In this document: in pieces, positions 35,340-60,929 of the stretch
How the letters are laid out: every line of letters starts with the position of its first letter
Position numbering within the stretch: position 1 is the stretch's first letter
Assembly (NCBI GenBank): GCA_035314425.1
Contig: DATFZN010000114.1
Location: 4,232 to 68,231, forward strand
Length of the DNA stretch: 64,000 bases
Direction of reading: 5' to 3'
DNA from: Candidatus Acidiferrum sp.
GTDB taxonomy: Bacteria; Acidobacteriota; Terriglobia; Acidiferrales; UBA7541
The notes under the pieces: generated by a model
Seen by the model: only the letters and a program-made list of their open reading frames with translations
Databases searched by the model: none
What the model was told of the DNA's origin: nothing
Translations under genes and position numbers: made by a program

Positions 35340-35843
35340 TTAGTCGAGGGCGGCGACGGTGTCGCGTTCGCGTCGGCGGCGATGCAGGTAATGCATCGCA
35401 ATATTTAAGTAGATCTGGCCACAGGGCGTCTCAATACAAATGACCATCGCTTCGGTCTCGACATTTCCGGAGAGGCCCTGCTCACTCACATGAATTTCTG
35501 GGGGGAACACTTTGAAGCGAAAACCCGCATCATTCAGCAATGTGACAGAATTGCCGATAACCATGTTTGCGAGTTCGCAAACAGTCTCTCGGACAACTTG
35601 TTCGCTCGCGGCCACGGGTGAGCCGGCCAGCGCGCTGGCAACACTGATTGCGACCTCCGGAGCAAGATCGAGAATGACACGCCCTTCGATATCACCCTTG
35701 ATCGCAATCAGCGCGGCGATGCCTTTGCGGCGATAGGTATCCTCTTCCATCGTGAGGTCGAGGATCTTTGTCGGTGCTTGCAGAGATTCAGCGAAAACAG
35801 CATCCGCGGCGTTTATAAACGGTTGGATCAGTTCCATTCTCAT
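35340..35843 (-). CDS. cheX: CheX-type CheY-P phosphatase
   Basis: Single CheC/CheX active-site motif E-x2-N-x22-P (ELANMVIGNS...VFPP) and N-terminal ..PFINAADAVF.. as in CheX. ATGA overlap with cheY. Confidence 0.75.
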   Translation of the reverse strand: MRMELIQPFINAADAVFAESLQAPTKILDLTMEEDTYRRKGIAALIAIKGDIEGRVILDLAPEVAISVASALAGSPVAASEQVVRETVCELANMVIGNSVTLLNDAGFRFKVFPPEIHVSEQGLSGNVETEAMVICIETPCGQIYLNIAMHYLHRRRRERDTVAALD

Positions 35844-36292
35844 CGGTGGCCCTCTTCCGCGAGCGCGACCGGCCCGCTTGGTGCATTCGGGTCATCACCC
35901 AAAACGTAACGTAGAATCTCATACAAGACTTCCGGTTTCACCGGTTTCTGGACGAAATGCTTTGCGCCCTTTTGCAGAGCAGCCAGAATATTTTCCTGAT
36001 AGCCAACGGAAGACACCATGACAATGCGGGCGTTGGAATGTTGCCGAACGATGCGTTCGACGGCTTCAATGCCCTCCATTTGCGGCATGGTGATGTCCAT
36101 CAGCACGATGTCGGCTTTGGTGCGGTTGTACTCCGCAATGGCGGTGAGGCCATCGCCCGCCTCGCCAGCAACCTCGCCGCCGAAAAGCTCAATCATCTTG
36201 ATGAGATTTTTGCGAGCGAAGACGGAGTCGTCCACGACCAAGTAGCGGACGGGTTGATTGTCGCTCCGAAGTAAAGGTGCAAACTGTTGCAT
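35840..36292 (-). CDS. cheY: CheY-like single-domain response regulator
   Basis: Receiver motifs LVVDDS, DIVLMDITMP, MVSS and VQKP. Confidence 0.85.
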   Translation of the reverse strand: MQQFAPLLRSDNQPVRYLVVDDSVFARKNLIKMIELFGGEVAGEAGDGLTAIAEYNRTKADIVLMDITMPQMEGIEAVERIVRQHSNARIVMVSSVGYQENILAALQKGAKHFVQKPVKPEVLYEILRYVLGDDPNAPSGPVALAEEGHR

Positions 36293-36319
36293 AAACTTCT
36301 CCTTTGGCCCCGCACGTCG

Positions 36320-37471
36320 TCAGACGCGTGGAGTCGAAACTGGTGTCCTATCGTTCTTTTCCGCGCGATCACTTTTCTCGAGCTTTTCCTGCGCATCGGT
36401 TTTTTCTGTATTGCCGCGATCAGAAGCGAATTGAGTAATCAGAAACTGGCTGAGCCCATCAAGTGGAATAATTTTTGAGGCGTAGCCCTTATTGATCGCG
36501 GCACGGGGCATGCCTGGGACCACGCAGGTATCTTCGCTTTGCGCGATGGTTACGCCGCCAGCTGAGCGAATCGCGCCCAAACCTTCCGCGCCGTCTTCAC
36601 CCATGCCAGTCATGAGCACGCCGACGGCGGTCAAACCAAACTCTTGGGCGACGGAATGAAACAGAACGTCCACCGAGGGGCGATGGCCATTGATCGGAAG
36701 ACCATCGGAAAGAATCACCATTTCACCCCGCGGCATGCGCCGGACCATCATGTGTCGATTGCCGGGACAGATCAACACGCGGCCGGCGATCAGGAGATCG
36801 CCGGACTTCGCCTCCTGCACATCGACAGCGCAACATTCATCAAGGCGACGCGCAAACATTTCCGTGAAACCTTCGGGCATGTGCTGTACGACCACGAATG
36901 TGGCCGGAAACTCTACGGGAATTTGTGAGAGCAGATATTGCAAGGCATTGGGACCACCGGTAGAGATACCAATTGCGATTACGCGATTGGGTTGAACGGC
37001 CGGCCGGCCGCGTTTTTTGTGAAGTGGAGGAAGTTCGATCTCTGCCCGCGGAATTGCTTTTGTTCCCCCCGCCCGTTTGGCTACCTTGATTTTTTCGATG
37101 AGCTGGACTGCAACCGTTTCGAGATGACCAGTAGCGGCATCCTTTGGCTTCGGAACGAAATCGATTGCGCCAAGTGCCAGGGCTTTGAACGTGGAGTAGG
37201 CGCCTTCCTTCGAATGGGTGCTGAAAACAATTACGGGGAGCGGCGCGCTACGCATGATCATGCGCAGTGTCTCAATTCCATCCATGCGCGGCATTTCTAA
37301 ATCGAGGGTGACGACGTCGGGACGCAACTCGGCAATTTTGCGCAGAGCAAACGCGCCGTCCATTGCCGTACCCACGACCTCAACATCGGGATCGCGTTCG
37401 AGAATCAATGGAATCAACTTCCGCATGAGCGCAGAGTCGTCCACCACCAGCACTCGGACCCGTTCTCTCAT
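36320..37471 (-). CDS. cheB: Protein-glutamate methylesterase CheB (REC + methylesterase)
   Basis: REC (VLVVDDS, DVVTLDLEMP) plus catalytic GISTGGP, VVQHMP and GMGEDG. Confidence 0.95.
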   Translation of the reverse strand: MRERVRVLVVDDSALMRKLIPLILERDPDVEVVGTAMDGAFALRKIAELRPDVVTLDLEMPRMDGIETLRMIMRSAPLPVIVFSTHSKEGAYSTFKALALGAIDFVPKPKDAATGHLETVAVQLIEKIKVAKRAGGTKAIPRAEIELPPLHKKRGRPAVQPNRVIAIGISTGGPNALQYLLSQIPVEFPATFVVVQHMPEGFTEMFARRLDECCAVDVQEAKSGDLLIAGRVLICPGNRHMMVRRMPRGEMVILSDGLPINGHRPSVDVLFHSVAQEFGLTAVGVLMTGMGEDGAEGLGAIRSAGGVTIAQSEDTCVVPGMPRAAINKGYASKIIPLDGLSQFLITQFASDRGNTEKTDAQEKLEKSDRAEKNDRTPVSTPRV

Positions 37472-39561
37472 GCGATGGCTCCAAGTGGAATGGCACGAGA
37501 CAATCTCGAAAGAATTGCCGGAACGCTCAGAATCAAAACGACCGTGCCGTCGCCGAGGATCGAAGCACCACTGACGAGGTCGCTCGAGACGATTTCCCCT
37601 GGTAGAGCTTTTATGACCAATTCTTCTTCTCCAACCATGGTGTCGACCAGCAGGCCAAACCGTTTTTCAGCAATTCCAATCACAATTACAAAGCTTTTTT
37701 TCTTTAAAAGACTGCTCGGCTCGACAGAATGGATCCCTTTGATGGAGTTCAACCGGACGAGTGTCAAGATCTGGTCCCGTAGACGGAGGACTTCCCGCTG
37801 GTCGACACGCTGAATCTCTTGATCAGAGATGCGCGTGATTTCCACGACCGCGGAAAGCGGTACGGCAAATAATCGCCCGCCCACTCGAAACAAAAGAGTC
37901 TGAATGCTGGCAAGGGTCAAGGGGACGCGTAGAAGCATGGTCGTTCCCTTTTTTTTCGAGCTGGAAACGTGGACTGTACCCTTCAGCCGATCGAGAACGG
38001 TCCGGACCACGTCCATGCCAACGCCGCGGCCGGAGATTTCGGTGATTTCACTTGCGGTGCTGAAGCCGGATTCGAAGATGAGATTCAAAACGTCTGGCTC
38101 AGTTAAACGGTCGGCATCTTCTTTTTTGATCAGCCCACTGCGAACGGCCTGGGCCCGGATGAGATCGAGGTCAATCCCGCGACCATCGTCACGGACTTCA
38201 ATGACAACTTGGGTTCCTTGATGATACGCGTTCAGGTAAACAGTGCCGCGTGCGGGCTTGCCCGCGTTCAGGCGCTCCTCGGCAGGTTCGATGCCGTGGT
38301 CGACTGCGTTGCGGACGAGGTGAGTCAGTGGCTCTGCAAGAGCATCCAAAATGCTTTTGTCGAGGTCGGTATGTTCGCCTGCAACCTCGAGCGCGATATC
38401 TTTGCCGCAAAGTTTTGCGACATCTCGAACCACTCGTGGGAAGCGTCGGAACAACTGTTCGACTGGAACCATACGAATCTTCAAGACGCATTTGTGCAAT
38501 TCATCGAGAATGCGCGATTGGAAAGCCAGTGTTTCAGCCAACTTTGCGCGAACCGGATCGCGTGCGTGGTCTACATCAAATTCGGCAAGGGTCCGGTTGA
38601 GCATGGATTTGCCGATGATGAGTTCGCCGACGAGGTTCATCACGGCATCGATGCGAGAGGAATCGACGCGCAGTGAACTCTCGGCAAGTGCCGCGACAGC
38701 GGAAGAACCAGACTGACCCTTGGCTTCAATTGCCGCAGAGTCTGACCTGGTAGCGTGTTCCACAGCTTGTGCTTCCAGAATATCTCCCAAAAGCTGATGT
38801 TCGGCGCCTTCATCCTGAGCGGCATTCTCGATTCGGACATCGGAGACGATCGAGGGGATACGGCAGCGATGCGAAACGTGGTCCATGGGATGAGTACTGG
38901 CAACGGCTGCTTCGACAATGTCGACTTGGGAGGCAGCGAGGTTGTCCTCTGGGCGGAGGGCGATGACCGTGCCACAAGCGTGAAGTACATTGCGAACGAG
39001 TTGAAATGCCGCAGCTCGCATGGCGCTGTCCGGGTCGATGCGCAATGCAATGTTGTAAACGCTACTCCCGTTCAGCCGGGCTTCAGAGATCATCAGCCGT
39101 TCGTACTCGCTCCATTGAAACTCCGCAGGGACCATGCCCATTTGCCGATTGGGCTTTACACATTTTTCTGCAGGGGACTCGAGAAGCCCGTGAATCAGAA
39201 GCCGTAAGGCTGCCGGCGCTGGGGGTTCGATTTGCCGCTGGTAGCAGCTCAACATATTTTCAAAGGTGTCGACGGAAGAAAGGATAGCTTCAGCGAGTTG
39301 TACACCCTGCGACTGGCTAATCTGCAGGGTCAAGACATCCTCAAGTTCATGAGCAATTTCACTCAATTTGCTAAAGCCACATGCGGCGGAGTCACCTTTT
39401 AGAGTGTGAATTGCACGGCGCAGGCTACGCAAAAGCTCCTCATCGGCGGGATGCTTCTCGAGTCTTAAACCAGAATCATTGATGGTCTGCAGAAGTTCCG
39501 ACGCACTCTCAAAAAAGAGCGCGCGAAGCTCCGAATTCCGTTCATCGGGCAGGAAACTCAA
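37468..39561 (-). CDS. cheA: Chemotaxis histidine kinase CheA (Hpt-dimerisation-HATPase-CheW)
   Basis: Hpt AIHTLKGDSA; HLVRNAVDHGIE, DDGRGID and GRGVGMDVV; C-terminal CheW-like domain. Confidence 0.95.
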   Translation of the reverse strand: MSFLPDERNSELRALFFESASELLQTINDSGLRLEKHPADEELLRSLRRAIHTLKGDSAACGFSKLSEIAHELEDVLTLQISQSQGVQLAEAILSSVDTFENMLSCYQRQIEPPAPAALRLLIHGLLESPAEKCVKPNRQMGMVPAEFQWSEYERLMISEARLNGSSVYNIALRIDPDSAMRAAAFQLVRNVLHACGTVIALRPEDNLAASQVDIVEAAVASTHPMDHVSHRCRIPSIVSDVRIENAAQDEGAEHQLLGDILEAQAVEHATRSDSAAIEAKGQSGSSAVAALAESSLRVDSSRIDAVMNLVGELIIGKSMLNRTLAEFDVDHARDPVRAKLAETLAFQSRILDELHKCVLKIRMVPVEQLFRRFPRVVRDVAKLCGKDIALEVAGEHTDLDKSILDALAEPLTHLVRNAVDHGIEPAEERLNAGKPARGTVYLNAYHQGTQVVIEVRDDGRGIDLDLIRAQAVRSGLIKKEDADRLTEPDVLNLIFESGFSTASEITEISGRGVGMDVVRTVLDRLKGTVHVSSSKKKGTTMLLRVPLTLASIQTLLFRVGGRLFAVPLSAVVEITRISDQEIQRVDQREVLRLRDQILTLVRLNSIKGIHSVEPSSLLKKKSFVIVIGIAEKRFGLLVDTMVGEEELVIKALPGEIVSSDLVSGASILGDGTVVLILSVPAILSRLSRAIPLGAIA

Positions 39562-40463
39562 GAATTATCCTCGATTCGCTTATAGGCAGTGCCGTTATTT
39601 TCGTGAACCATCTTGAATTTCTGGGTCAATCCGAAAAGGCTCTCGGCGTGGCCGACGAATAAGTAGCCACCCGGATTCAAGCAATGCCAGAACTTTTCGA
39701 TCAAACGCTTTTGTTCTGCTTCATCGAAATAGATCATGACGTTGCGGCAAAGGATGATGTCGTTGCGGCGGGGCAAAAACTCGGTCTTGAGATTATGGAA
39801 GTCGAATTGGACCAAATCCTTGAGCTGTTTCTTTACCGCGTACCTATCGCTGGACTTTTCGAAATAGCGCAGACGAGTGGTGTAATCCACTGGTTCCATC
39901 TGAATTTCTGTATAAAGACCTTCCTGACCAGTGCGCAAGCTTGCGTAGCTGATGTCGGAGGCGACAATTTCCAGCTTCCAAGGAGGCGGAATCATCGGCT
40001 TCGGCGAAGGCATCTCGAACGGCAATGGATTCCGCAGGTAGTAGTACGCCAACGCATCGCAAATCAGAATGGCCACGGAATATGGTTCCTGGCCTGCAGA
40101 ACAACCCGCGCTCCAAACCCGCAAATTCCAGTCGCGCCGTTCTTGTTTACGGTGAAGAATTTCTTCCAAAACATTCTTTTGCAGGAGATCGAGTTGCGGA
40201 CGATTGCGAAAAAAACTGGTTTCGTTAACAGTTAAATTTTCAAGCAGAAGGGCGAGTTCGGCTCTTCCCTCGCGACTGGTCAAAAGGCGGTAATAGCTGT
40301 AAAAGGACTCGATTTGACACGCCTTCAGTCTCCGCTGCAGGCGGTCTTTCAGGAAGTGCGAGCGGCGTTCATCGAAATACATGCCGCATTCCTGATAGAC
40401 GAGGGTCTGGAGGAGTTTTAGTTCTGCTTCAGTAAGCTGAACCTGCGCAGTGATCGTTCCCAT
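39558..40463 (-). CDS. cheR: Chemotaxis methyltransferase CheR
   Basis: N-terminal helical CheR domain, ETSFFRN, and SAM-binding VWSAGCSAGQEPYS. Confidence 0.95.
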   Translation of the reverse strand: MGTITAQVQLTEAELKLLQTLVYQECGMYFDERRSHFLKDRLQRRLKACQIESFYSYYRLLTSREGRAELALLLENLTVNETSFFRNRPQLDLLQKNVLEEILHRKQERRDWNLRVWSAGCSAGQEPYSVAILICDALAYYYLRNPLPFEMPSPKPMIPPPWKLEIVASDISYASLRTGQEGLYTEIQMEPVDYTTRLRYFEKSSDRYAVKKQLKDLVQFDFHNLKTEFLPRRNDIILCRNVMIYFDEAEQKRLIEKFWHCLNPGGYLFVGHAESLFGLTQKFKMVHENNGTAYKRIEDNS

Positions 40464-40517
40464 AATGTAGGTGCGTCGAGCCTTTCGAACGGTAACATTT
40501 CCAAGATTTTTGGAAAT

Positions 40518-41003
40518 CTATGTCGGAATTGCGACCGGCTCCGCGGCCTCCTCGAGCTTCTTGAATTCCGGTTGACGCAGAAGACGCGGAATATCCAAGA
40601 TGATGACCAGCCGGCCTTTTAACTTTCCGACTCCGGTGACGTAGCTGGACTCACCCTCCGCGAAAACGGTACCCGGTGCTTCGATTTCCGAGGGTGGAAT
40701 TTTCAAAACCTCCGAAGCGGAGCTAACGATCAGGCCCAGAAGTTTATTCCCCAATTCCACAACCAGAATTCGATTTCGCTTATCGCTTTTGACATCTTTG
40801 TCGCCAAACCGCTTACGCAGATCCATAACCGGAATAATCTTCCCGCGAAGATTGATCACCCCTTCGATGGCTTCAGGTGCATTGGGCACCGAAGTAATTT
40901 CCGGGACGCGGACAATTTCCCGCACGGAAGCGATACGCACCCCGTACGTTTCATTGCCGATCCGAAATCCGACTACTTGATGGTCTTTCTCCATGGTTCG
41001 CAC
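40518..41003 (-). CDS. cheW: CheW coupling protein
   Basis: Motifs ..VVGFRIGNETYGVRIASVREIV.. and INLRGKIIPVMDLR. 161 aa. Confidence 0.9.
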   Translation of the reverse strand: MRTMEKDHQVVGFRIGNETYGVRIASVREIVRVPEITSVPNAPEAIEGVINLRGKIIPVMDLRKRFGDKDVKSDKRNRILVVELGNKLLGLIVSSASEVLKIPPSEIEAPGTVFAEGESSYVTGVGKLKGRLVIILDIPRLLRQPEFKKLEEAAEPVAIPT

Positions 41004-41009
41004 TGTTTC

Positions 41010-43019
41010 TTAGGACTGGCTCACTTCGGCGTATTCGAATTCATTTGCACCAGACTGTGAAGAGCGACGATGGCTAGGGATTGCGTCGCGACGATGGCGA
41101 ACTTGCCCGGCGCGATCGATGACAAACTGGTCCATATTGTCCAGAAGATTTCTGGAAAGCTTCAACATTTGCTCGGCGGCAGCCGAAAGCTCCGTTGAAC
41201 TGGAAGCCGATTGCTGAACGAGTTCACGCATCTTGTCCATGGCGCGGACAACGGCTTGCGCACCGGAAGCCTGCTCTTCAACCGCGGAACTGATCTCCTG
41301 GGTAATTTCGGTGAGGCGATTGGTCGCCTTGGCAATCTGCGAAGAACCCACAGACTGCTCGTTGGTGGCTGCGCCGATTTCCTGAGAAAACTTGTAGACC
41401 TCCGTAACCACATCAGAGATTTTGTGGAGTGCCGTGCCCAGGTCATTTCCAAAGCCCAAACCTTCTTCCACGATCCGCGTACTCTGTTCCATGTTTTCGA
41501 CCGCCTGACGAGCCTCGCGCTGAATGCTCTGAATCAGGTCCGCGATTTCTTTCGTTGATTGTGTGGACTTTTCCGCTAGTTTCCGAACTTCGTCGGCGAC
41601 GACGGCAAATCCGAGTCCATGTTCGCCGGCGCGGGCGGCTTCGATCGCAGCGTTCAACGCCAGAAGATTGGTTTGTTCGGCAAGGTCATCGATGACTTCA
41701 ATGATTTTTCCGATGTCATCGGCGCGGTGACCAAGAATATTGATGATTTCCGCGGAAGACTGGATGGAACGGTTAGTGCGATTCAAGCCATCGGTGGTCT
41801 TCTCCATGGTGGCAATGCCAGTGACCACCTCTTCTCTCGAACGGTTCGCGATATCCAGAAGAACTTTGGCGGTATCTGCAACGCGCTGGATCGAAGTGAC
41901 CATCTGATCGATGGAAGCCGAGGTTTCTGCAACGCTGCTAGCCTGCACCTGCGTGTTCTTCACGACGTTTTGAACGTTTACGCTCATCTCATGCATCGTG
42001 CTGGTCACTTCCTCAATGGCGGAAGAAGCTTGCACGCTGACCTTGGCCGATTCATCGGCAGCGCCGGCGACTTGGTTGGACCCGGCGGATACTTGCGAAG
42101 CGCCGTCGCGGGTGGAGCGAACAATCTGTTGGAGTCCATGCGACATGCGCGCGAACGCGTTGCCGAGCGTGTCGCGCTTGGATCGCGGAGCGACTTCGAT
42201 GGTCAAATCGCCTTCGGCAACCGCCATGGAAACGGTGGCCATTTCCTTCAGATACGCGACCATGTTGTTGAAAGTGGTGGCCAGCGCGCCGATTTCGTCG
42301 TTGCGATGGATATCAATGTTCTGGTCCAGGTCCCCGGCATCGCCAATCTCGCGGGCCACAGCAATCAAATGCTGGAGAGGTTCGGTGATGGATTTTGCCG
42401 TGCGCACTGCGGTGATGCCGATGAATATCATGGCGCAAAGTGTTCCCACGAGGATAAAGATCAAACTGACGGTGCTGGCGCGGCGGGCCGCATCCTGAGA
42501 ATCGCTGAGGGCTTTACTCATGTCCGTATTGGCCTGATCGAGAACTGTGGAAGACTTGGTGAGCCAGGAAGACGGATCTTTCTGAAGATAGAAAATCTGT
42601 AGATCAGAAACGGTGGCATCGCCAGAATCAACTTGGTGCCGCTTGGCAAGCAGAGGTTTCGCAAAATTATCTGCCCAATTGGCTTCGGTGCTCTCGACCT
42701 GAATCAGAGCAGTGCGTAGAAAGTCGTTGTTTGTCTGCGACTGGGCACGCTTGACCAAATCACTCAGTTCGGAGAATCCGCGGTTAACTTTTTCTTCGTC
42801 GCGTGGATCGCCGCTCAGTAGAAAATTATTCAGGTTCAAGCGGTTGATCATGATCTGATAACGCGCCGCTTCTGCGGTGCGCACACTCTCAAGTGTGGAT
42901 GCGGCTTCAGCACTGGCCGACCGCGCTTTCCAAATGGTGGCGAGGTCAACCATCAAGAGAATGGCGAGAATCGCCAGGATCGCCCCGAAACTTCGATATA
43001 GTCGATTTCCGATCGTCAT
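41010..43019 (-). CDS. Methyl-accepting chemotaxis protein with CHASE3-like periplasmic domain and HAMP
   Basis: Conserved hairpin [36 protein letters not shown]. Two TM segments bracket an approximately 170-aa domain with NNFLLSGDPRDEEKV (CHASE3-like). ATG 43019 is preceded by GGAGGAAG. Confidence 0.9.
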   Translation of the reverse strand: MTIGNRLYRSFGAILAILAILLMVDLATIWKARSASAEAASTLESVRTAEAARYQIMINRLNLNNFLLSGDPRDEEKVNRGFSELSDLVKRAQSQTNNDFLRTALIQVESTEANWADNFAKPLLAKRHQVDSGDATVSDLQIFYLQKDPSSWLTKSSTVLDQANTDMSKALSDSQDAARRASTVSLIFILVGTLCAMIFIGITAVRTAKSITEPLQHLIAVAREIGDAGDLDQNIDIHRNDEIGALATTFNNMVAYLKEMATVSMAVAEGDLTIEVAPRSKRDTLGNAFARMSHGLQQIVRSTRDGASQVSAGSNQVAGAADESAKVSVQASSAIEEVTSTMHEMSVNVQNVVKNTQVQASSVAETSASIDQMVTSIQRVADTAKVLLDIANRSREEVVTGIATMEKTTDGLNRTNRSIQSSAEIINILGHRADDIGKIIEVIDDLAEQTNLLALNAAIEAARAGEHGLGFAVVADEVRKLAEKSTQSTKEIADLIQSIQREARQAVENMEQSTRIVEEGLGFGNDLGTALHKISDVVTEVYKFSQEIGAATNEQSVGSSQIAKATNRLTEITQEISSAVEEQASGAQAVVRAMDKMRELVQQSASSSTELSAAAEQMLKLSRNLLDNMDQFVIDRAGQVRHRRDAIPSHRRSSQSGANEFEYAEVSQS

Positions 43020-43098
43020 TGCGTCACTTCCTCCACTCCGCCAACCGCGCTTCGAGGCCGTGCTTCGCTCATCGGCAGCGCAAAACAAACAAATCTAA

Positions 43099-43407
43099 CT
43101 ATTGACCGAAATTGAATTCGATCAGTTGCGAGGTTTCTTCAGGCGCAGCGTCAAATCGCCATTCCTTAACCGCTTCCAAGCACGGCTGAACCAGGACGGG
43201 AGAGCCGCCAACAGCGCGAACACTTTTAACGTGACCGTCCGGAGCGATCACGGCTTCCACCTTGACCTTCCCGGTAATATTCATCTTGCGAGCCAGATCC
43301 GGGTAAACGGGAGTGACTTTCGTTTTCGCCTTGCGCCTGCCTTCTTCGGCTTGCTGAGCACTGGCTAAAGATCCCGCCAAAACAAATATTGCTGCTCCCG
43401 TAACCAT
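43099..43407 (-). CDS. Small secreted TonB C-terminal-domain protein
   Basis: Signal peptide MVTGAAIFVLAGSLASAQQ, then PVYPDLARKMNITGKVKVEAVIAPDGHV..V.. (TonB_C fold). ATG 43407 is preceded by GGAGAAAG. The ORF-track start at 43524 would place the sigma-54 promoter inside the gene. Confidence 0.75.
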   Translation of the reverse strand: MVTGAAIFVLAGSLASAQQAEEGRRKAKTKVTPVYPDLARKMNITGKVKVEAVIAPDGHVKSVRAVGGSPVLVQPCLEAVKEWRFDAAPEETSQLIEFNFGQ

Positions 43408-43479
43408 TTTCTTTCTCCATCGAACACATGTCCGCACTTCGGACCTCCTGGGCGAGGGAAAGTCCCCCACCAAGGAAAA

Positions 43480-50788: not shown

Positions 50789-50797
50789 TTTTCTACT

Positions 50798-53214: not shown

Positions 53215-53274
53215 GGCAAATAGTGTTTCGGCGTTTCGGTGAGATCGAACGATCGAGGCAAGAGCGGGACGGTT

Positions 53275-54159
53275 ATGAGCGATCGCCACGGGGCGGGACA
53301 CAGTTTGACCGAACACGAACTGAGCGAGATCCGCATGCTGATCGAAGAGCGGACAGGCATACGTTTCGACGAGTCGCGCGAGAGATTTTTCTCCACGCGA
53401 GTCCGTGAACATCTGCACGCAAACGGTTTTCACCACGGCAGCGAGTTGGTCAGGGCGATCCGCAAGAGCAATGTGGAATATGAGGCACTGCTTGAACGGT
53501 TGCTAACCCAGGAAACATCGTTCTTCCGCTATCCCGCGGTGTTCGATGCGTTTGAGAAAAGAGTTTTGCCGGAACTGCACGCCAAGAACTTCTGGAAGAG
53601 CCCGCGGACGCTTCGGGTGTGGAGCGCTGGGTGTTCCACCGGCGAGGAGCCCTACTCCATCGCGATCACCATACTCGACACCCTTTCTTTGGCGGATGCG
53701 TGGAACGTGGAAATCCTGGCGACCGATGTGGGCCGTCACGCGCTGAAACATGCAGAACGCGGAGTGTATTCTGGCCGCAGTATTTCCAGTGTGAAAGCTT
53801 CGCAGCTTGCCGCACATTTCACAGTGGCAAAAGATGGGCATCAAGTGAAGCCTCGCGTCCGCAAGTTGGTTAGTTTCGCACAGATGAACTTGGCGTCACC
53901 CGTTTATTTGGGTCGCATGGACTTGATTTTCTGCATGAATGTTCTTATTTACTTTTCGGAAGCGCGGTGTGCCGCACTCGTACAGCGGTTTTATGAAGCG
54001 CTGGAGCCCGGTGGATATCTTTTTCTCGGGCATTCTGAGTCCATTTCGAAGATGACGGTGAAATTTCAGGCCATCGTTTTGGGTGATTGCATCTTGTATC
54101 GCAAGCCATTGGCGGATGAAATGCAAAAGCACGAATTGGTGGCGGAGGGACGCGGGTGA
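53275..54159 (+). CDS. CheR-type methyltransferase (PilK position)
   Basis: Motifs ETSFFRY and VWSAGCSTGEEPYS. The start is ATG 53275 or ORF-track GTG 53239. Confidence 0.9.
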   Translation: MSDRHGAGHSLTEHELSEIRMLIEERTGIRFDESRERFFSTRVREHLHANGFHHGSELVRAIRKSNVEYEALLERLLTQETSFFRYPAVFDAFEKRVLPELHAKNFWKSPRTLRVWSAGCSTGEEPYSIAITILDTLSLADAWNVEILATDVGRHALKHAERGVYSGRSISSVKASQLAAHFTVAKDGHQVKPRVRKLVSFAQMNLASPVYLGRMDLIFCMNVLIYFSEARCAALVQRFYEALEPGGYLFLGHSESISKMTVKFQAIVLGDCILYRKPLADEMQKHELVAEGRG

Positions 54160-57155
54160 GCGGTCCGGACCAAGAAGCCGTCGAGCTTTTCCTCCAGGAA
54201 GCATCCGAGCACCTGCAGTATCTGCGGGAATACGTCAGCGTGCTTCAAGACGCTTCGCCACGTCACGAAGATGTGGAGCGCCTGTACATCGCCGCACACA
54301 CGCTAAAGGGCACTTCTGCCAGTTATGGCTTTCCGCGCTTTTCTGAAGTTGCCGGCAAGCTTGCGCACATTTTCCAATATGCGCTGAATGCTCCGCTCGG
54401 CGACGATCTACACGGCCCGCTAACCGAGTTCCTTTCCGACGGCATCTCCCTGCTCGAAACCAGCTTGCTCGAGATTAGTGACACCGGTCAGGAAAATATC
54501 GAGGACGCAACCGCGTTTAAGGAACGCTATCGTTTTGCGTTTCCCGTCGAACCACCGCCACTCAATTTGGCGCCGCTCGAACCTCGTGTGGAAGAGCCGC
54601 AAGAGGCACAGGATAACTCACCATTTGAGCCGTCGGAGGCCATTCACACGGGGTTGACCGGTTCCTATTTCGATGCCCTGCCTGCCGACGACGAAGTCCC
54701 GGGCGAGATTATCGAGTTTTTCCAGCCCGAGGCAGAAGAGCATTTGCAAATCGTCAGCGACTGTCTGCTTTCGCTTGAAGGCAATAACAACCCTGAAGAT
54801 ATCAATCGGTTGTTTAGGGCGATCCACACGGTAAAGGGCTCGGCGGCCCAGGTTGGACTGCGGCGGCTGGGCGCGATCGCACATCGCGTGGAAGACTTGA
54901 TCGGACGCCTGCGTGATCAAGAAATTCAGCCTTCCCCGGCGGTCGTGGATCTATGCCTTGCGTCAGTCGACGTGCTGAAGAAGACCTTGCATCGCGAGTG
55001 GAAAGACGAATCGGAAATGCGCGCGGGGGTCGATTCCCTTCTGGGCCGTATTGCGACCTTCGCGCCCGAAGAGTCCGAGGAAGGGCCCGGGCAGCCTGCG
55101 CCGACAGAGCAAAACGAGCTCGCAAGCGAAGAGGCGGCAGTGGCCGTCGAGGAGCCGCGCGCGAATAAACCTGCTACGACTCGGGCGCAGAAACAAGCCG
55201 TTGCGGCAAAATCGGTGCGCATCGCGCTTGGTCGCCTGGATCGCATGATGAACACAGTCGGCGAACTGGTAATCAATCGCACGAAAATGGTCGGCCGGGT
55301 CGCAGAACTGGAAAAGTTGATCGACACCCTGAGCTTTTCGAAGGAACGATTGCAAGGCAAAGTCAGCGAGTTTCAGGACAAGTACGAATTTAACCGGATT
55401 CGAGCAATCCAACCCGGTACGCCCTGGGCAAATCGGCAGACTCAGCAGATGTTGACTAGCGCAGCGGCAGGCGATGGCTCCATCTTCAGTGATTTTGGTG
55501 AACTGGAGATGGACCGCTACGATGATTTTAATATCTTGTCGCGTTCGATGACGGAAATTTCCGCCGACGTGAACGAAGTCCTTGCGCAACTTGAAGGATT
55601 CATCGGGAGAGTGGAAGGCGATATCGACGAATTCACCAAGCTTGCACATCACTTACAGGACGAGATTACCGCCGCACGTATGGTGCCCATTGGTACTCTC
55701 TATTCGCTGCTGTCGCGCACGGTTCGAGATGCAGCCAAATCAGCCAAAAAACAAGTCGAGATGGATCTCTCGGGCAGCGAGACGGAACTCGACAATAACA
55801 TCATTCAGCAAATCTCTGATCCGCTGGTGCACTTGGTACGTAATTCCGTTGCGCACGGCATTGAACCAACCGAAGATCGTGCGCGCAACGGCAAGCCCGA
55901 ACAGGGCAAGATTCTGCTTCGTGCCTATCATCGCGGCAATCACATTTACATCGAAGTCGAGGATGATGGTCGCGGAATCGATTACGAGCGCGTCAAGCAT
56001 AGTGCAATTGAATCCGGATTGGTTTCACCGGAAACCGCTGGCCGTTTAACGGAGCGCGACCTCCGCGAAATGCTTTTCCATCCGGGTTTTTCCACCGCTT
56101 CCGTCAAGACTGAATTGGCCGGTCGGGGAGTCGGACTCGACGTCGTTCGATCCAACCTCAACGCGCTAAACGGTGAAATTGAAGTTCAGAGTGTGGCAAA
56201 TCAAGGAACGAAGTTTACCCTAAAGGTTCCACTGACACTTATTATTTCCCCGGCTTTGTTCGTGCGTTGCGGTTCGAATCACTTTGCGATTCCGCTCGCC
56301 GTCGTGGAAGAGATTCGTCGTATCCGATCCGACGAAATCGAGGATGTTGGCGGAAAGCTGCTGACAAAAGTTCGCGACGTAGTTACGGAAGTGGTGCGGT
56401 TGGATTCTTATCTTGGTTTGCCTCCCCTCGAGCCAATGAATGGATATTTCCGCATGGTCGTGGCCAACGCGGGAACACGGCAGGTTGGCGTCGTCGTTGA
56501 GGAAGTGATCGGCAAAGACGAAATCGTGATCAAGAGCCTTGGCGAATATCTGCGCAGAATCAAATTGTTCCCAGGCACGACCATCGCACCTGACGGCAGC
56601 TTGATTCTGTTACTCGATCTCAATCGCATGGTGGCGACCGAACCGAATGAGCGTCGCGCAGTACAAGCCAGTGCCAGCGCAGCTCGCGTATTTGCCCCGG
56701 GCTCCGAAGCCATCGCTCAAGGCACAATTCCTGTGGACGCGATCGATCGGGTTGACCAGGAACGCGTCGTCGTCATCGTGGACGATTCTATCAGCGTGCG
56801 CAAATTTGTGGCCCGGATGCTGGAAAAGAATGGCTATCGTGTGAAGCTTGCGGCCGATGGATTGGAAGCCGCTGAGCTTATCACCCAGCAGGGATGCCAT
56901 TTGGTCATTACCGACCTCGAAATGCCGCGCATGACCGGTTATGAATTGATGGCCCAATTGCGGCAGAACCCGATCACCAGAAGAATTCCGGTCATGGTAG
57001 TCACTTCACGAGCCGGCGCAAAACACCGTGAGCGCGCGCTCAAGGAAGGCGCGACTTCATTCCTGACAAAGCCAGTGCAGGAAGACCAACTGCTGTTCGC
57101 AGTGGAACAACTGATTGGGACGGAGGCGGCACGGCCAGTCGTGCCAGTTGGATAG
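54156..57155 (+). CDS. Hybrid CheA (ChpA-like): two Hpt domains + dimerisation + HATPase + CheW + C-terminal receiver
   Basis: Hpt1 AAHTLKGTSA and Hpt2 AIHTVKGSAA; HLVRNSVAHGIE, DDGRGID and GRGVGLDVV; a CheW-like domain; and a receiver (VVIVDDS, LVITDLEMP, TKP). 999 aa. Confidence 0.95.
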   Translation: MSGPDQEAVELFLQEASEHLQYLREYVSVLQDASPRHEDVERLYIAAHTLKGTSASYGFPRFSEVAGKLAHIFQYALNAPLGDDLHGPLTEFLSDGISLLETSLLEISDTGQENIEDATAFKERYRFAFPVEPPPLNLAPLEPRVEEPQEAQDNSPFEPSEAIHTGLTGSYFDALPADDEVPGEIIEFFQPEAEEHLQIVSDCLLSLEGNNNPEDINRLFRAIHTVKGSAAQVGLRRLGAIAHRVEDLIGRLRDQEIQPSPAVVDLCLASVDVLKKTLHREWKDESEMRAGVDSLLGRIATFAPEESEEGPGQPAPTEQNELASEEAAVAVEEPRANKPATTRAQKQAVAAKSVRIALGRLDRMMNTVGELVINRTKMVGRVAELEKLIDTLSFSKERLQGKVSEFQDKYEFNRIRAIQPGTPWANRQTQQMLTSAAAGDGSIFSDFGELEMDRYDDFNILSRSMTEISADVNEVLAQLEGFIGRVEGDIDEFTKLAHHLQDEITAARMVPIGTLYSLLSRTVRDAAKSAKKQVEMDLSGSETELDNNIIQQISDPLVHLVRNSVAHGIEPTEDRARNGKPEQGKILLRAYHRGNHIYIEVEDDGRGIDYERVKHSAIESGLVSPETAGRLTERDLREMLFHPGFSTASVKTELAGRGVGLDVVRSNLNALNGEIEVQSVANQGTKFTLKVPLTLIISPALFVRCGSNHFAIPLAVVEEIRRIRSDEIEDVGGKLLTKVRDVVTEVVRLDSYLGLPPLEPMNGYFRMVVANAGTRQVGVVVEEVIGKDEIVIKSLGEYLRRIKLFPGTTIAPDGSLILLLDLNRMVATEPNERRAVQASASAARVFAPGSEAIAQGTIPVDAIDRVDQERVVVIVDDSISVRKFVARMLEKNGYRVKLAADGLEAAELITQQGCHLVITDLEMPRMTGYELMAQLRQNPITRRIPVMVVTSRAGAKHRERALKEGATSFLTKPVQEDQLLFAVEQLIGTEAARPVVPVG

Positions 57156-57162
57156 ACGAGCC

Positions 57163-58302
57163 ATGACCAGTAGCGCACAAAAGAAGTTCCGAGTGCTCGT
57201 CGTGGACGATTCCGCTTTCATGCGGAAAGTTCTCGAGTCTATTTTCAATTCAGACGACCAATTGCAGGTAGTCGGCCACGCCAAGGATGGCCGCGAAGCG
57301 ATCACGCTCTCGGAATCCCTTAAACCTGATGTCATCACCATGGACATCAATATGCCGCATGTCGACGGGCTGCAGGCCACAGCGCATATCATGACGAACA
57401 ACCCGCGGCCGATTGTGGTGGTTAGCTCAGAAACCCGCGAAGGAGCCTTCAGCGCTCTGAAGGCATTGGAACTTGGCGCAATCGAGTTTGTGACCAAGCC
57501 AACCAGCGGCATTGATCTGGACATGCAGAGTATTAAAGAGGATTTGCTGCGTAAAGTTCGGATGGCTGCGAAAGTTCGGGTCGTGCGAACAGCATCACGT
57601 CAGGCAAGCACGATACAGTCTCGAACTCTGCCCGCAACCTCAACACCCGCTCAGGCAGAGCCCCTGGCTGCACCTTCGCGAACCATGAGCGTTGCGACTG
57701 ATCTTCGCTTCCCGGTTGTGGTGCTCGGTGCATCAACTGGAGGTCCTGCAACAATCATGCGCATGGCGCCCGGTTTTACGCGCGATTTTCCGGCGGCAGT
57801 CATCCTCGTTCAACACATGCCAGCAGCATTTACTACCCAATATGCTGTGCAACTTGCAGAGTTCACCAACATCCGTGTGAAAGAAGCGGAAAATGGTGAA
57901 GCGGTTGGGCCCGGTACTCTCTATATTTGTCCCGGTGGGCAGCATCTCCGCGTTTCGCAAACGGGACGCATTCAGCTCGACGCAACAACCGGGCGAATCG
58001 AAGGATATCTACCCAACATCGATGTGACCCTGGAATCTGTGGCAAGTTTTGCCGGTCCGATGGGCATCGGCGTAATCCTGACCGGGATGGGGAGTGATGG
58101 CGCTCGCGGCGCACGGCTAATTAAGTCTGCCGGTGGGATTGTTTTCGCCCAGGACGAAGCGACTTCCGTAATTTTCGGTATGCCAGCAGAAGCGATTAAG
58201 ACCGGTGCAGTCGAACAAGTATTGGGAATTGACGACCTGTATCCCGCGATTGAAAAGCGAGTTCTCAGCCTCAGCCGCGCGATGCCAGCAGGAGTGCTCT
58301 GA
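57163..58302 (+). CDS. CheB-type methylesterase (REC + methylesterase; ChpB position)
   Basis: Motifs VLVVDDS, DVITMDINMP, GASTGGP, LVQHMP and GMGSDG. The start is at MTSSAQKK (57163). Confidence 0.95.
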   Translation: MTSSAQKKFRVLVVDDSAFMRKVLESIFNSDDQLQVVGHAKDGREAITLSESLKPDVITMDINMPHVDGLQATAHIMTNNPRPIVVVSSETREGAFSALKALELGAIEFVTKPTSGIDLDMQSIKEDLLRKVRMAAKVRVVRTASRQASTIQSRTLPATSTPAQAEPLAAPSRTMSVATDLRFPVVVLGASTGGPATIMRMAPGFTRDFPAAVILVQHMPAAFTTQYAVQLAEFTNIRVKEAENGEAVGPGTLYICPGGQHLRVSQTGRIQLDATTGRIEGYLPNIDVTLESVASFAGPMGIGVILTGMGSDGARGARLIKSAGGIVFAQDEATSVIFGMPAEAIKTGAVEQVLGIDDLYPAIEKRVLSLSRAMPAGVL

Positions 58303-58841
58303 TGCGTTTCGAACCCACGCATAAGATTCCGGCGGCGCGCAGCGAACAGATCATACTTTTTCGCAGTAGCTCCCAGCTTTTTGCGGTTTCCTCTGCTTCC
58401 GTACAAGAAGTACGCAGCGTCGATAGTCTCGCTGGCCTGGCCAGCGAAATCAACGTGCCGAACATTCGCAAAGTACGTCACATGCTCCGACGAGCAGAGC
58501 GCACCATCTATGTGGTCAACGTGGCATTGCATTTTGGATTGAAACCTTCACCGGCTGGCCTGATTTTCCTTCTCCGTAGATCGCGCATCGCACTGCTCTT
58601 GGACGGAATCGAGAAGATGAGCACCATGACACGCCTACAGGCCCTGCCCGCAGCTTTCACTCACGAAGAGCGCCATTGGTACCGGGGATTGACGGTTTTG
58701 GAACAAAACGTGTTTCCGGTGATAAATCCCACAGGCTTTTTGACCGCAGAAGAATTTCTGCAATTGGATTTGGCAGTCGAAAAGAAGGCGCACGATGCCG
58801 CAGCTCCCCCGGTTGAACCTGAAATTGGATTGGCGCTATGA
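58302..58841 (+). CDS. CheW-like domain protein (divergent; ChpC position)
   Basis: ..ILFRSSSQLFAVSSASVQEV.. has a CheW-like topology. Coupled by a TGATG overlap upstream and an ATGA overlap downstream. Confidence 0.7.
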   Translation: MRFEPTHKIPAARSEQIILFRSSSQLFAVSSASVQEVRSVDSLAGLASEINVPNIRKVRHMLRRAERTIYVVNVALHFGLKPSPAGLIFLLRRSRIALLLDGIEKMSTMTRLQALPAAFTHEERHWYRGLTVLEQNVFPVINPTGFLTAEEFLQLDLAVEKKAHDAAAPPVEPEIGLAL

Positions 58842-59320
58842 CGTGGACCGACCAAATCGATTCACACTCTTGCGTGCTGCTACGCATCGGTGATCGCACG
58901 TTTGCGCTTCCTGCCGATCAGGTGGCCGAGCTTGTCGCCCCTAGCCGCATTTTTCGTTTCCCTCATCGCACCAAAGAAATCGACGGTGTCATTTTGCGGC
59001 GTGGGCGGGTGGTTCCCGTGTGCGATCTCGCGGAAAAGCTCACGGGCCAGCGCTTGGTCTCCAGACGCTTTTACCTGATTGCCTGGAGGCAGCTGGCCAG
59101 CTCGAAAGAAACCGTAGCGTTGCCGGTGAGCGGCGAATGTGAATTGATCCGCGCGGATCTTACCCCTGCCAGCCCGACAGATTCGGCGCATGTAGCGGGA
59201 TGGCTGTCGCACCAAGGCGAAGTGATCGAAGTATTAAATCTTCAAGCGCTTACGCCAGAAATAATACTTGCTCGCCAAGCGAGTTCGGAACGGGCGGCGC
59301 TTGCGGAAGTGCTACCATGA
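58838..59320 (+). CDS. CheW-like domain protein (divergent, second tandem copy)
   Basis: Motifs ..VLLRIGDRTFALPADQVAELV.. and ILRRGRVVPVCDL. Confidence 0.7.
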   Translation: MTWTDQIDSHSCVLLRIGDRTFALPADQVAELVAPSRIFRFPHRTKEIDGVILRRGRVVPVCDLAEKLTGQRLVSRRFYLIAWRQLASSKETVALPVSGECELIRADLTPASPTDSAHVAGWLSHQGEVIEVLNLQALTPEIILARQASSERAALAEVLP

Positions 59321-60102
59321 TCTTTCCTGGAAAACCCGCCAAGATTCTACTGATTGACAGCAACGTGCTTTTTGCCAAGCGCCTTGGCGATGCCCTGAAA
59401 CGAGAGGGCTTTGAGGTCATTTCGACAACGCAAGCGGCATTTGCTTTGACAACCTTGGAGTACGACGCTCCATCAGCAATCGTGTGTTCCAGCAGTATGC
59501 GCGAAATGGGCGCATTGGAGTTGGCAAAAGTCGTTCGTGCAGATGCAAAGAACGCCAACCTACCGATTATCGCGATGGGTGACGGCAGCCAGAGGGCGTT
59601 GATGGAGGCCTTTCAAGCTGGATGCGATGATTACATCGATCGCCATCTTTCGCCCGCGACCATCGCCAATCACATCAAGAACATCGTCGTCAGCAAGATT
59701 GATGGCTTCCAGCCAACTCAAATGCTGGGTCAGGCGGACACCAGCTTAAGTGGAAATTTGACCCACCACGACCTCACCGGAGTGATGCAAATGCTTGGTC
59801 AGGCTCACCAAACTGGCGCGTTAACGATCAACGCCGGTGACACGGATGCGGTGATATTTTTTGACGCCGGTGAGATTACCCACGCGGAGTGCGGATCGCT
59901 GTTTGGCGATGAAGCTGTGCTGCATATCCTGAAAAACTGCGTGCAGTGTGGCAACGGAGTTTACAAGTTTGTTTACGGTGCTGCTTCCGGGCAGCGCACC
60001 GTTTTGCGCTCAGCCACGGACCTTATGTTGGACGCCATGCGCGAGTATGACGAAGTGGTTCGCGACATGAGCGACGATTTCGCGGACAAGGAGGCTCAAT
60101 GA
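59317..60102 (+). CDS. Pseudo-receiver + DUF4388 (PATAN-type) domain protein
   Basis: Receiver fold with Ser at the phospho-Asp position (AIVCSSSMREMG), and T87 and K109 equivalents also replaced. The C-terminal LSGNLTHHDLTGVMQMLGQAHQTGALTINAGDTDAVIFFDAGEITHAE..GDEAV..IL matches the DUF4388 pattern. The start is at 59317 (ATGA overlap), not the ORF-track 59200. Confidence 0.75.
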   Translation: MIFPGKPAKILLIDSNVLFAKRLGDALKREGFEVISTTQAAFALTTLEYDAPSAIVCSSSMREMGALELAKVVRADAKNANLPIIAMGDGSQRALMEAFQAGCDDYIDRHLSPATIANHIKNIVVSKIDGFQPTQMLGQADTSLSGNLTHHDLTGVMQMLGQAHQTGALTINAGDTDAVIFFDAGEITHAECGSLFGDEAVLHILKNCVQCGNGVYKFVYGAASGQRTVLRSATDLMLDAMREYDEVVRDMSDDFADKEAQ

Positions 60103-60929
60103 GCGAAACCATCGCTATGCCACCCCTCGGGACGGTCGAAAAAGGGCATGTTCCCACAGTTTATTTCATAGATGACAGCGCCACGATGCGCGAAGTCATC
60201 AAGATCGCGTTTCGTCGCGAGAACATTCACGTCATCACCTGCGCCGAGGCATCTTCCGCGCTGGGGCAATTCGATGAACATCCCCCGGATATCGTCATCA
60301 CGGATGTAATCATGCCGGATCAGGACGGCTACTCGGTCTGCAGCCAGATCAAACAGAATCCTCTCTACGCAAAGATTCCTGTAATCCTCATGTCCGGCGT
60401 CGTGAACAAGAATGTTGCGGATCGCGCGGTAGCCGTGCAAGCCGATGAGCTGGTACGCAAGCCGTTTCAGCCGCAGGAGCTGATCGCTCGCGTGAAAAAT
60501 CTTCTAGGCCAATCGAATCCGCGGCCGCAGCCCAAAGAAGAGCATTCTCCTGCTGTGCCGTCGCTCAGCAATTTATTTTCGGCTGCACCCTCAAATCCAC
60601 CGGCCGCACTGCGCCTGGTTCCGGTACCACCTCTGGTTCCCACGCCTCCGCCAAACGAACCCCCGCCGCCGGATTCGGTTTGGCCGCGGGCACTTGCGGA
60701 AGCATTTCTGCAGCAAAATCCCGGTGCCCCGCCGCAGCAACCTGCGCAGCCGGTGACCAGCCCTCCTGCCGCTCGCCCAAATGCCACCCCGGCCGATGCC
60801 ATCAGATTGCGAGCGGAAATTGCCCGCCTTGACCTACTCGTCAAGAAACTGCAAACCGAACTCCAGATCGAGCGGCAATATAATCAAGCGCTGGAGTTGC
60901 ACGTGCGCAGCTTGATTCAGATCGATTGA
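60099..60929 (+). CDS. Response regulator: canonical receiver + approximately 100-aa Pro-rich low-complexity region + short C-terminal coiled coil
   Basis: Motifs YFIDDS, DIVITDVIMP, LMSG and VRKPF, then PRPQPKEE...PPPNEPPPPD...PPQQPAQPVTSPPAARP, then RLRAEIARLDLLVKKLQTELQIERQYNQALE. Confidence 0.8.
   Translation: MSETIAMPPLGTVEKGHVPTVYFIDDSATMREVIKIAFRRENIHVITCAEASSALGQFDEHPPDIVITDVIMPDQDGYSVCSQIKQNPLYAKIPVILMSGVVNKNVADRAVAVQADELVRKPFQPQELIARVKNLLGQSNPRPQPKEEHSPAVPSLSNLFSAAPSNPPAALRLVPVPPLVPTPPPNEPPPPDSVWPRALAEAFLQQNPGAPPQQPAQPVTSPPAARPNATPADAIRLRAEIARLDLLVKKLQTELQIERQYNQALELHVRSLIQID

Follow-up and report, generated by a model that had tools for sequence, protein, structure and literature searches.

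A predicted sigma-54 regulon linking two chemosensory gene clusters to one NtrC-type activator in Candidatus Acidoferrales and relatives

Genes and control elements at the locus

The signalling locus described here occupies positions 35340-60929 of a 64,000-nt stretch (the window) of contig DATFZN010000114.1 from Candidatus Acidiferrum sp., and its gene content was read from Pfam scans of the open reading frames (ORFs). At its centre, genes for a sensor histidine kinase, a stand-alone receiver and an NtrC-type enhancer-binding protein (EBP) lie between two chemosensory gene sets. One of these (operon 1) is transcribed divergently, while the other (cluster 2) runs in the same direction as the kinase genes and follows three further genes (the trio). 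A preliminary description, made from the letters of the window, had proposed that the kinase and the EBP gate both chemosensory sets and the trio through sigma-54. The module that would act as the switch consists of:

43795-46122, plus strand: sensor histidine kinase, 775 aa (Pfam HisKA and HATPase_c)
46119-46517, plus strand: stand-alone receiver protein (Pfam)
46514-47938, plus strand: NtrC-type EBP with REC, AAA+ and HTH_8 domains (Pfam)

The three genes are translationally coupled through ATGA overlaps at 46119-46122 (kinase and receiver) and 46514-46517 (receiver and EBP). No transmembrane (TM) segment was detected in the kinase, whose highest 19-residue Kyte-Doolittle mean is 1.37, as compared with 2.5-2.7 in both methyl-accepting chemotaxis proteins (MCPs) of the locus; the protein has a partial GAF match, three PAS S-box stretches and a normal H-box. 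The coupling, the soluble kinase with a GAF and three PAS-like domains, and the position of the module between two complete chemosensory sets on the Pfam gene map are all as the preliminary description had them. The first PAS-like domain of the kinase (residues ~175-285) also contains CPFC, a CxxC motif that may be a redox or metal site.

The EBP is of the NtrC type (group I), with an N-terminal receiver (Response_reg) that retains its Asp in DLVLTD, an AAA+ domain (Sigma54_activat, 2e-69) with Walker A GESGTGK and an intact GAFTGA, and a C-terminal HTH_8. AtoC and NtrC are its top NCBIfam matches, but it scores below the equivalog cut-offs (AtoC 443 of 714 bits, NtrC 427 of 559, ZraR 378 of 760) and is an unnamed member of the NtrC family.

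The candidate control elements lie in three regions, before operon 1 and the kinase gene, before the trio, and before cluster 2:

43481-43495, minus strand: promoter A, -24/-12 element TGGCACTGCACTTGC, a perfect TGGCAC-N5-TTGC, preceding operon 1
43614-43659, unstranded: enhancer A, half-site GTCTCA (43614-43619) and dyad ATCTCACGCTGAGAC (43645-43659), from the dyad scan
43722-43776, unstranded: conserved 55-bp block before the kinase gene, from conservation
43722-43727 and 43745-43750: TTGACT and TAGCTT separated by N17, putative sigma-70-type promoter of the kinase operon, from conservation only
43723-43737: dyad-like GACTCAGATTGAGAT (GACTCA-N3-TGAGAT), overlapping the putative sigma-70-type promoter
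43762-43776: dyad GTCTTAACTTGAGAC, in the conserved block before the kinase gene
47942-48012, unstranded: enhancer B, half-sites (47942-47947 and 47986-47991) and dyad GTTTCAGTGTGAGAC (47998-48012), from the dyad scan
48096-48111, plus strand: promoter B, -24/-12 element TGGTTCTCGGCGTGCA (TGG-N9-TGC), preceding the trio
50631-50636 and 50640-50654: enhancer C, half-site and dyad TTCTCAGAGTGAGAC, inside the 3' end of the gene for the 227-aa trio protein, from the dyad scan
50772-50787, plus strand: promoter C, -24/-12 element TGGCTGTCAACGTGCA (TGG-N9-TGC), preceding cluster 2

Conservation of the locus among relatives

Our comparison set comprises 80 loci from species-representative genomes (10-kb flanks, 1.6 Mb in total), anchored on the 481-aa protein of the trio and labelled mostly Ca. 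Acidoferrales or unclassified Acidobacteriota. The layout was checked by tblastn with all window proteins as queries, and the three control regions were aligned with MAFFT across 73-80 species. The flanks reach the CheA of operon 1 only partly, with its CheB, CheY and CheX and the REC-coil gene of cluster 2 lying outside.

In the alignments, motif columns are conserved at 96-99%, as against 54-58% for the remaining intergenic columns; on this comparison, the control regions are under strong purifying selection. The -24/-12 element of promoter A is kept in 74 of 74 loci (in the form TGGC..N..[TG]TGCC), that of promoter B in 73 of 73 (TTTGGC..N..CGTGCA) and that of promoter C in 80 of 80 (TGGC..N..CGTGCA). 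Their GG and GC are invariant and exactly 10 nt apart in the 73-80 loci, and the elements face the right direction, 12-136 nt upstream of the first gene (74 nt between promoter A and the TonB_C start). Promoter A is also the sole zero-mismatch match to TGGCAC-N5-TTGC in the 64 kb. A scan of the whole window against Rfam found no RNA families, and the conserved blocks are thus not a known RNA family.

The dyad GTCTCA-N3-TGAGAC, counted with at most one mismatch, occurs four times in the window where 0.13 occurrences are expected (0 of 100 shuffles reach four), at 43645, 43762, 47998 and 50640, all within the three control regions, and extra half-sites stand at 43614, 47942, 47986 and 50631. Across the 1.6 Mb of the 80 loci, 235 of 235 dyads fall in the three regulatory regions and none elsewhere. 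TGAGAC as a hexamer alone shows no enrichment (20 in the window against 26 expected), so that the significance lies only in the dyad form and in the clustering, 8 of the 20 hexamers being inside the short control stretches. The spacing is conserved as well. The dyads of the window lie 157 bp from promoter A, 91 bp from promoter B and 125 bp from promoter C; measured from the dyad centre to the T of TGG, the distance is 157-159 bp in most loci at A, 89-91 bp in 65 of 73 at B and 124-126 bp in 77 of 80 at C. The columns of enhancer A are at least 95% conserved, and region A has extra dyads, likewise at fixed spacing (234-237 and 275-279 bp).

The 227-aa gene holds the dyad of enhancer C in its final codons. 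The codon over its N3 spacer specifies A, G, T, V, S, L, C or P, depending on the species, and in all tallied codon types its last base is T, with which TGAGAC begins. The Glu after the spacer codon is GAG at every one of the 92 sites; for the next Glu but one, GAA predominates, and the Ser codon at the dyad is TCT in 75 of 92. As judged from this codon usage, the embedded dyad is under codon-level selection as DNA, and the conservation of SQxET in the otherwise variable tail of the 227-aa protein is probably a by-product of the enhancer. Midway between the cluster-2 enhancer and promoter C, at 50722-50734, lies the only moderately conserved TTTCAAATACTTA, one mismatch from the IHF consensus WATCAANNNNTTR.

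Gene order is conserved together with the motifs. Essentially all of the 80 loci with enough contig have CheR-CheW-MCP-TonB_C on one strand (the order TonB_C-MCP-CheW-CheR is preserved in nearly all) and, on the opposite strand, kinase-REC-EBP, the trio and then CheY through REC-PATAN. Eight loci (L009, L033, L036, L039, L046, L049, L054 and L078) have a 481-aa gene 67-78% identical to that of the window, and the longer contigs among them are also syntenic; they are deposited under the non-acidobacterial names Alphaproteobacteria, Eremiobacteraceae, Verrucomicrobiia, Eisenbacteria, Limnocylindrales, Baltobacteraceae, Dormiibacterota and Elarobacter, which probably reflect mistakes in the binning or labelling of metagenome-assembled genomes (MAGs).

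The family of the 481-aa protein extends well beyond this set. A word-indexed search gave more than 3,600 homologues, of which the top 120 have 75% identity or more and belong to Ca. Acidoferrum/Acidiferrum where the source gives a name, and an exhaustive search of 50%-identity representatives gave 565 clusters at 50% identity, reaching ~30% identity. A profile of distant family members with traceable contigs led to the following loci, given with the identity of their 481-aa protein to that of the window:

L083 (68%): whole layout; dyads at the three places; strong (at least 8 of 11) -24/-12 element at each
L085 (45-47%): whole layout; three dyads; strong -24/-12 elements at A and C
L086 (45-47%): whole layout; three dyads; strong -24/-12 elements at A, B and C; no stand-alone receiver; two TonB_C genes
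L082 (39%, 2.7-Mb contig): operon 1, kinase-REC-EBP and 481-aa gene kept; cluster 2, the 110-aa and 227-aa genes and the TonB_C gene missing
L087 (37%): EBP gene, followed by 7 kb of type I restriction-modification system and by the trio, with TGAGAC/GTCTCA half-sites and a TGG-N9-TGC element next to it
L081 (36%): trio and cluster 2, with cluster-2 dyad and promoter; the contig ends upstream
L084 (32%, the most distant full-length homologue): 481-aa gene alone beside uvrB/uvrA; no signalling genes

Even where the identity of the 481-aa protein is down to 36-47%, relatives keep the layout and the motifs, and the order from CheY to REC-PATAN is found in L081, L083, L085 and L086 as it is in the 80 loci. 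The conserved block before the kinase gene is also kept in L082, L083 and L086. The stand-alone receiver, missing in L086, is for that reason to be seen as accessory. L084 offers an unrelated context as a negative control, and neither dyad nor EBP was found near its 481-aa gene; this solitary homologue means that the 481-aa family is not always tied to chemosensory loci. In L082, a second, unrelated pair of histidine kinase and EBP genes lies 3 kb downstream. As far as these comparisons go, the tighter core of the locus is operon 1 with the kinase-EBP pair.

There is a recurrent break point between the EBP stop codon and enhancer B (~47939-47941), where five loci have unrelated cargo: the Acidoferrales loci L021, L025, L042 and L030, with 2 kb to more than 9.6 kb, and L087. 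The cargo includes a DinB-family gene, a Ser/Thr kinase with TPR repeats, an Ig-domain protein with an outer membrane protein, a stretch of more than 9.6 kb with an esterase and a GNAT-MarR gene, and, in L087, the type I restriction-modification system. In all four Acidoferrales insertion loci, dyad and promoter stay directly upstream of the trio, and in L030 they are present although no EBP is encoded within 9.6 kb upstream. That dyad and promoter stay with the trio indicates that the cis elements belong to the target operons, and the insertions between EBP and trio indicate that the regulator can act in trans and that the module is separable.

The EBP helix-turn-helix, GISRATLYRKLKRY, is nearly invariant among 79 orthologues, the exceptions being L for I in L085 and KQY in L082. 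Because both this sequence and the dyad are nearly invariant in every lineage, co-variation cannot be used as evidence that the one recognizes the other. A promoter and terminator scan of 43400-51000 gave nothing above shuffle expectation, with the proposed sigma-70 promoter of the kinase operon below threshold. The overlap of dyads with the promoter region of the kinase operon suggests autoregulation by the EBP, and the block at 43722-43776 is probably its autoregulatory operator on this operon.

The predicted target operons and the rest of the window

Operon 1 has eight genes (35340-43407, minus strand; Pfam) with intergenic gaps of 0-79 nt:

43099-43407, minus strand: TonB_C-like small secreted protein (Pfam)
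41010-43088, minus strand: MCP, probable ATG start at 43019 (Pfam)
40518-41003, minus strand: CheW (Pfam)
39558-40463, minus strand: CheR (Pfam)
37468-39561, minus strand: CheA (Pfam; match to the P2 domain weak)
36320-37471, minus strand: CheB (Pfam)
35840-36292, minus strand: CheY (Pfam)
35340-35843, minus strand: CheX (Pfam)

This is a full chemosensory set (MCP, CheW, CheA, CheY, CheR, CheB) plus CheX, and its MCP has two TM segments and a periplasmic domain of ~165 aa. Cluster 2 has ten genes (50798-60929, plus strand; Pfam):

50798-51187, plus strand: CheY, probable GTG start at 50825, giving 120 aa as in the gene calls of relatives
51206-51736, plus strand: first CheW (Pfam)
51766-53214, plus strand: MCP (Pfam)
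53239-54159, plus strand: CheR (Pfam)
54156-57155, plus strand: CheA-REC hybrid (Pfam)
57115-58302, plus strand: CheB, probable ATG start at 57190 (Pfam)
58302-58841, plus strand: second CheW (Pfam)
58838-59320, plus strand: third CheW (Pfam)
59200-60102, plus strand: REC-PATAN/DUF4388, probable ATG start at 59317, with ATGA overlap with the CheW stop
60099-60929, plus strand: REC, Pro-rich linker and coiled coil (Pfam)

It likewise holds a full set of MCP, CheW, CheA, CheY, CheR and CheB, and in addition two further response regulators. The CheA-REC hybrid has two Hpt stretches, and the MCP has almost no periplasmic domain. For the CheY, CheB and REC-PATAN genes of this cluster and the MCP gene of operon 1, the mechanically assigned ORF starts are probably too early.

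The trio lies between the EBP gene and cluster 2:

48185-48517, plus strand: 110-aa PilZ-like protein (fold match of the AlphaFold 2 (AF2) model)
48514-49959, plus strand: 481-aa all-alpha protein (AF2 model)
50008-50691, plus strand: 227-aa pseudo-receiver and DHp-like protein (alignment, weak HisKA match)

Neither Pfam nor NCBIfam places the three proteins in a family, apart from the weak HisKA match; searching PDB sequences with profiles gave no match, and none of the three has a TM segment. The AF2 model of the 110-aa protein (predicted local distance difference test (pLDDT) score 78) is a helix with a six-stranded barrel, for which the top Foldseek matches are PilZ domains (BcsA, PA0012, Alg44, MotI and YcgR; E 3e-3 to 2e-2, TM-scores 0.5-0.68), with FMN-binding split barrels scoring close to them. 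The c-di-GMP motifs RxxxR and (D/N)xSxxG were found neither in its sequence nor in the conserved columns of 25-43 orthologues. The 481-aa protein (pLDDT 73) is modelled as all-alpha with a disordered linker at 313-347; a fold search with this model gave no match below E = 0.2, and sequence searches gave none either. The 227-aa protein has a receiver-like domain lacking the acceptor Asp and, after it, a DHp-like pair of helices; its HisKA match of 22.9 bits is below the cut-off of 26.9 and there is no HATPase_c, so it does not qualify as a histidine kinase. Its residue 150 is an H-box-like His in at least 90% of orthologues but Arg in the window protein, which speaks against this His being essential for phosphotransfer, in this strain at any rate. 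The conserved position of the trio and its own EBP-type promoter suggest that the three proteins are signalling accessories.

Outside 35340-60929, the window encodes ordinary metabolism, and no rpoN, flagellar or pilus genes were found among its large ORFs. A PF10136 site-specific recombinase gene (12985-15144) and a carboxylase, carboxyltransferase, methylmalonyl-CoA mutase and MeaB cluster of metabolic function (24051-32620) are unrelated to the signalling locus.

A model of the regulon, its alternatives and known systems

We read the locus as a self-contained sigma-54 regulon under one EBP in Ca. Acidoferrales and their relatives, and put the probability of this reading at roughly two in three. 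The cytoplasmic GAF-PAS-PAS-PAS kinase would detect an intracellular cue and phosphorylate the receiver domain of the adjacent NtrC-type EBP, while the stand-alone receiver may serve as a side branch or phosphate sink. The activated EBP would assemble and oligomerise on the GTCTCA-N3-TGAGAC dyads 157, 91 and 125 bp upstream of the three promoters, and remodel sigma-54 RNA polymerase there to open complexes. This would switch on the divergent tonB_C-mcp-cheWRABYX operon, the trio of cytoplasmic proteins, and the Frz- or type IV pilus (Tfp)-like cheY-W-mcp-R-A(REC)-B-W-W operon together with its outputs, REC-PATAN and REC-coil. Through the two dyad-type sites over the putative sigma-70-type promoter, the EBP would also autoregulate the kinase operon. 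What the sequences show directly is the gene content and the position, conservation, specificity and fixed spacing of the motifs; from these we infer that the EBP is the binder of the dyads, that the signal would be intracellular and that the operons would depend strictly on the EBP, while the autoregulation could be of either sign.

Much of what the preliminary description had proposed is retained in this model. The -24/-12 element and the shared dyad that it placed before operon 1, the trio and cluster 2 are conserved without exception in the loci compared (74 of 74, 73 of 73 and 80 of 80), with fixed dyad spacing, and the synteny of the module with both clusters on which it had staked its proposal holds in essentially all 80 loci and in deeper relatives. 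The comparative evidence strongly supports the cis layout expected of one sigma-54 regulon. That the genes are switched on as a unit was overstated, since there are three transcription units, each with its own promoter and differing in enhancer distance and number of sites; moreover, cluster 2 and most of the trio are missing in L082, and five loci have insertions after the EBP gene. Too strong, too, was the statement that the architecture had not been described, in view of FleQ and sigma-54 in Rhodobacter sphaeroides and of CrdS/CrdA beside Che3 in Myxococcus xanthus, to which we return below.

Several points speak against the model. The case is built on sequence comparison, and its source is the MAG of an uncultured organism. 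The loose -24/-12 pattern (TGGC-N7-KTGC) occurs at chance frequency in the window (10 against 7.2 expected); TGGCAC-N5-TTGC with up to two mismatches (89 against 78 expected) is uninformative by itself. With the loose pattern unenriched, promoters B and C are only suggestive by the window sequence alone, and their -12 part is GTGCA, not TTGCA. The recognition helix of the EBP is of a common NtrC-family type and does not by itself tie the protein to the dyad. In L082, no -24/-12 element can be recognised between the EBP gene and the homologue of the 481-aa gene that comes after it, and rpoN is not among the large ORFs of the window. Extra sigma-70 promoters may also serve the che operons, in which case the EBP would boost their expression and not gate it.

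The information could also flow the other way. One or both chemosensory pathways would then feed the EBP through CheA, as kinase or phosphatase of the EBP or of the stand-alone receiver, and this input would be the main reason for the linkage. The EBP would be an output of chemosensing instead of its master switch, or in addition to that, and the che operons would be controlled by the output of their own pathways in a feedback loop. M. xanthus provides the precedent, in that CrdA is dephosphorylated by CheA3 of the adjacent Che3 system (PMC3147164), and it fits this idea that operon 1, too, starts with a small secreted protein (with a TonB_C domain) and that the locus holds an extra receiver and a pseudo-receiver-DHp protein. 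But whereas Che3 is without CheY, both clusters here encode CheY-type outputs, and cluster 2 two more response regulators, and the conserved sigma-54 promoters and dyads before the che operons would be left unexplained. We consider this flow unlikely, and at most an added layer. A different doubt concerns the protein on the dyad, which might be encoded elsewhere, as another EBP or a repressor, with the EBP of the locus serving other targets and the co-location of its gene being historical. NtrC-family HTH sequences do resemble each other, and L030 keeps dyad and promoter far from any EBP gene upstream of the trio. Against this, the dyads flank and overlap the promoter region of the EBP operon in every lineage, stand at the enhancer-typical distance of 90-160 bp from the -24/-12 elements and are absent elsewhere from the 1.6 Mb; no second DNA-binding protein is conserved at the locus, and L084, which lacks the EBP neighbourhood altogether, has no dyads either. 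Another binder is very unlikely on these grounds.

It might finally be asked whether the conserved blocks are sigma-54 promoters at all, or whether ordinary promoters read the operons and the TGG-N9-TGC pattern is incidental. The chance frequency of the loose pattern in the window would agree with that, as would the fact that 3 of the 11 consensus positions are not matched in promoters B and C. It would not account for GG and GC dinucleotides that are 100% conserved at an exact spacing of 10 nt in 73-80 loci, within DNA that is 54-58% conserved, next to a gene for a GAFTGA EBP and with no match to Rfam, and we regard it as extremely improbable. Beyond the regulon reading itself, one may speculate that the trio is an accessory module not recognised before, induced by the EBP, that feeds back on the phosphorylation of kinase, receiver and EBP or couples the two chemosensory arrays. 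The locus would then be a self-contained, bistable switch by which an abundant, uncultured soil lineage commits itself to a programme of motility or behaviour; we think this quite unlikely.

The regulon would be of interest for several reasons. Common in soil, the acidobacterial order Ca. Acidoferrales (UBA7541) has yet to yield a cultured member, and among the papers searched we found none on chemotaxis or sigma-54 in this group, nor on its behaviour or the regulation of that behaviour. The model makes the concrete prediction that a single soluble sensor and a single activator, together with one 15-bp site and three promoters, decide whether two whole chemosensory systems are made, and this prediction can be tested without culturing, using synthetic DNA and purified proteins. 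The locus also offers a clean case of an enhancer within coding sequence that bears a codon-level signature of selection, and draws attention to the 481-aa family, which is widespread, strongly conserved and genetically tied to chemosensory genes.

Parts of the predicted regulon have counterparts in well-known systems. Enteric NtrB/NtrC act at glnAp1/glnAp2, where dyads lie ~100-160 bp upstream of a -24/-12 promoter and also over a sigma-70 promoter, and NtrC both activates and autoregulates through the dyad TGCACC-N5-GGTGCA. Our locus differs in that the putatively autoregulated operon is divergent from one of the predicted sigma-54 targets, the dyad is GTCTCA-N3-TGAGAC, and the predicted targets are chemosensory genes and not those of nitrogen assimilation. 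Response regulators with PATAN domains belong to Frz or Tfp-type systems such as M. xanthus Frz and cyanobacterial Pix and Tax. Cluster 2 resembles these in its CheA-REC with Hpts, several CheWs, CheR, CheB, near-periplasm-less MCP and REC-PATAN protein, a likeness drawn from gene content and not from class-specific models; it differs in its REC-PATAN order, as opposed to PATAN-REC, and in that no pilus or gliding genes are found in the window.

A whole che operon under an EBP and sigma-54 is known from R. (Cereibacter) sphaeroides, in which FleQ and RpoN2 activate the cheOp3-type genes tlpT-cheA4-cheA3-cheW4-cheR3-cheB2-cheY6, while cheOp1 is activated by CckA/ChpT/CtrA (reviewed in PMC7277832). 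As in the FleQ case, an EBP and sigma-54 would act on a complete chemotaxis gene set. These regulators are flagellar master regulators and not a dedicated pair; FleQ stands at the head of a flagellar hierarchy, and the che genes that it controls are inside a flagellar locus, whereas no flagellar genes are near the locus studied here, and its activator is a receiver-bearing NtrC-type protein with its own soluble kinase, apparently dedicated to signalling genes.

The closest architecture is that of M. xanthus, where the NtrB-like CrdS phosphorylates the NtrC homologue CrdA and CheA3 dephosphorylates it (PMC3147164). In that system, the Che3 cluster is without CheY and its first gene encodes a periplasmic peptidoglycan-binding protein, and the targets of CrdA were unknown in that work (PMC3147164). 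In both cases, an NtrB-like PAS kinase and an NtrC-like activator adjoin a che cluster, the synteny is conserved within an order, and an envelope-type accessory gene opens the cluster, although its domain is TonB_C in operon 1 and OmpA in Che3. Because both of its clusters encode CheY, the present locus is not a Che3-type system. In M. xanthus the demonstrated flow is from Che3 to CrdA; here, with two CheY-bearing clusters and a trio, the sequence evidence points to a flow from the EBP to the che promoters. If so, the locus would be an evolutionary counterpoint to CrdSA/Che3, made of the same parts with the opposite wiring.

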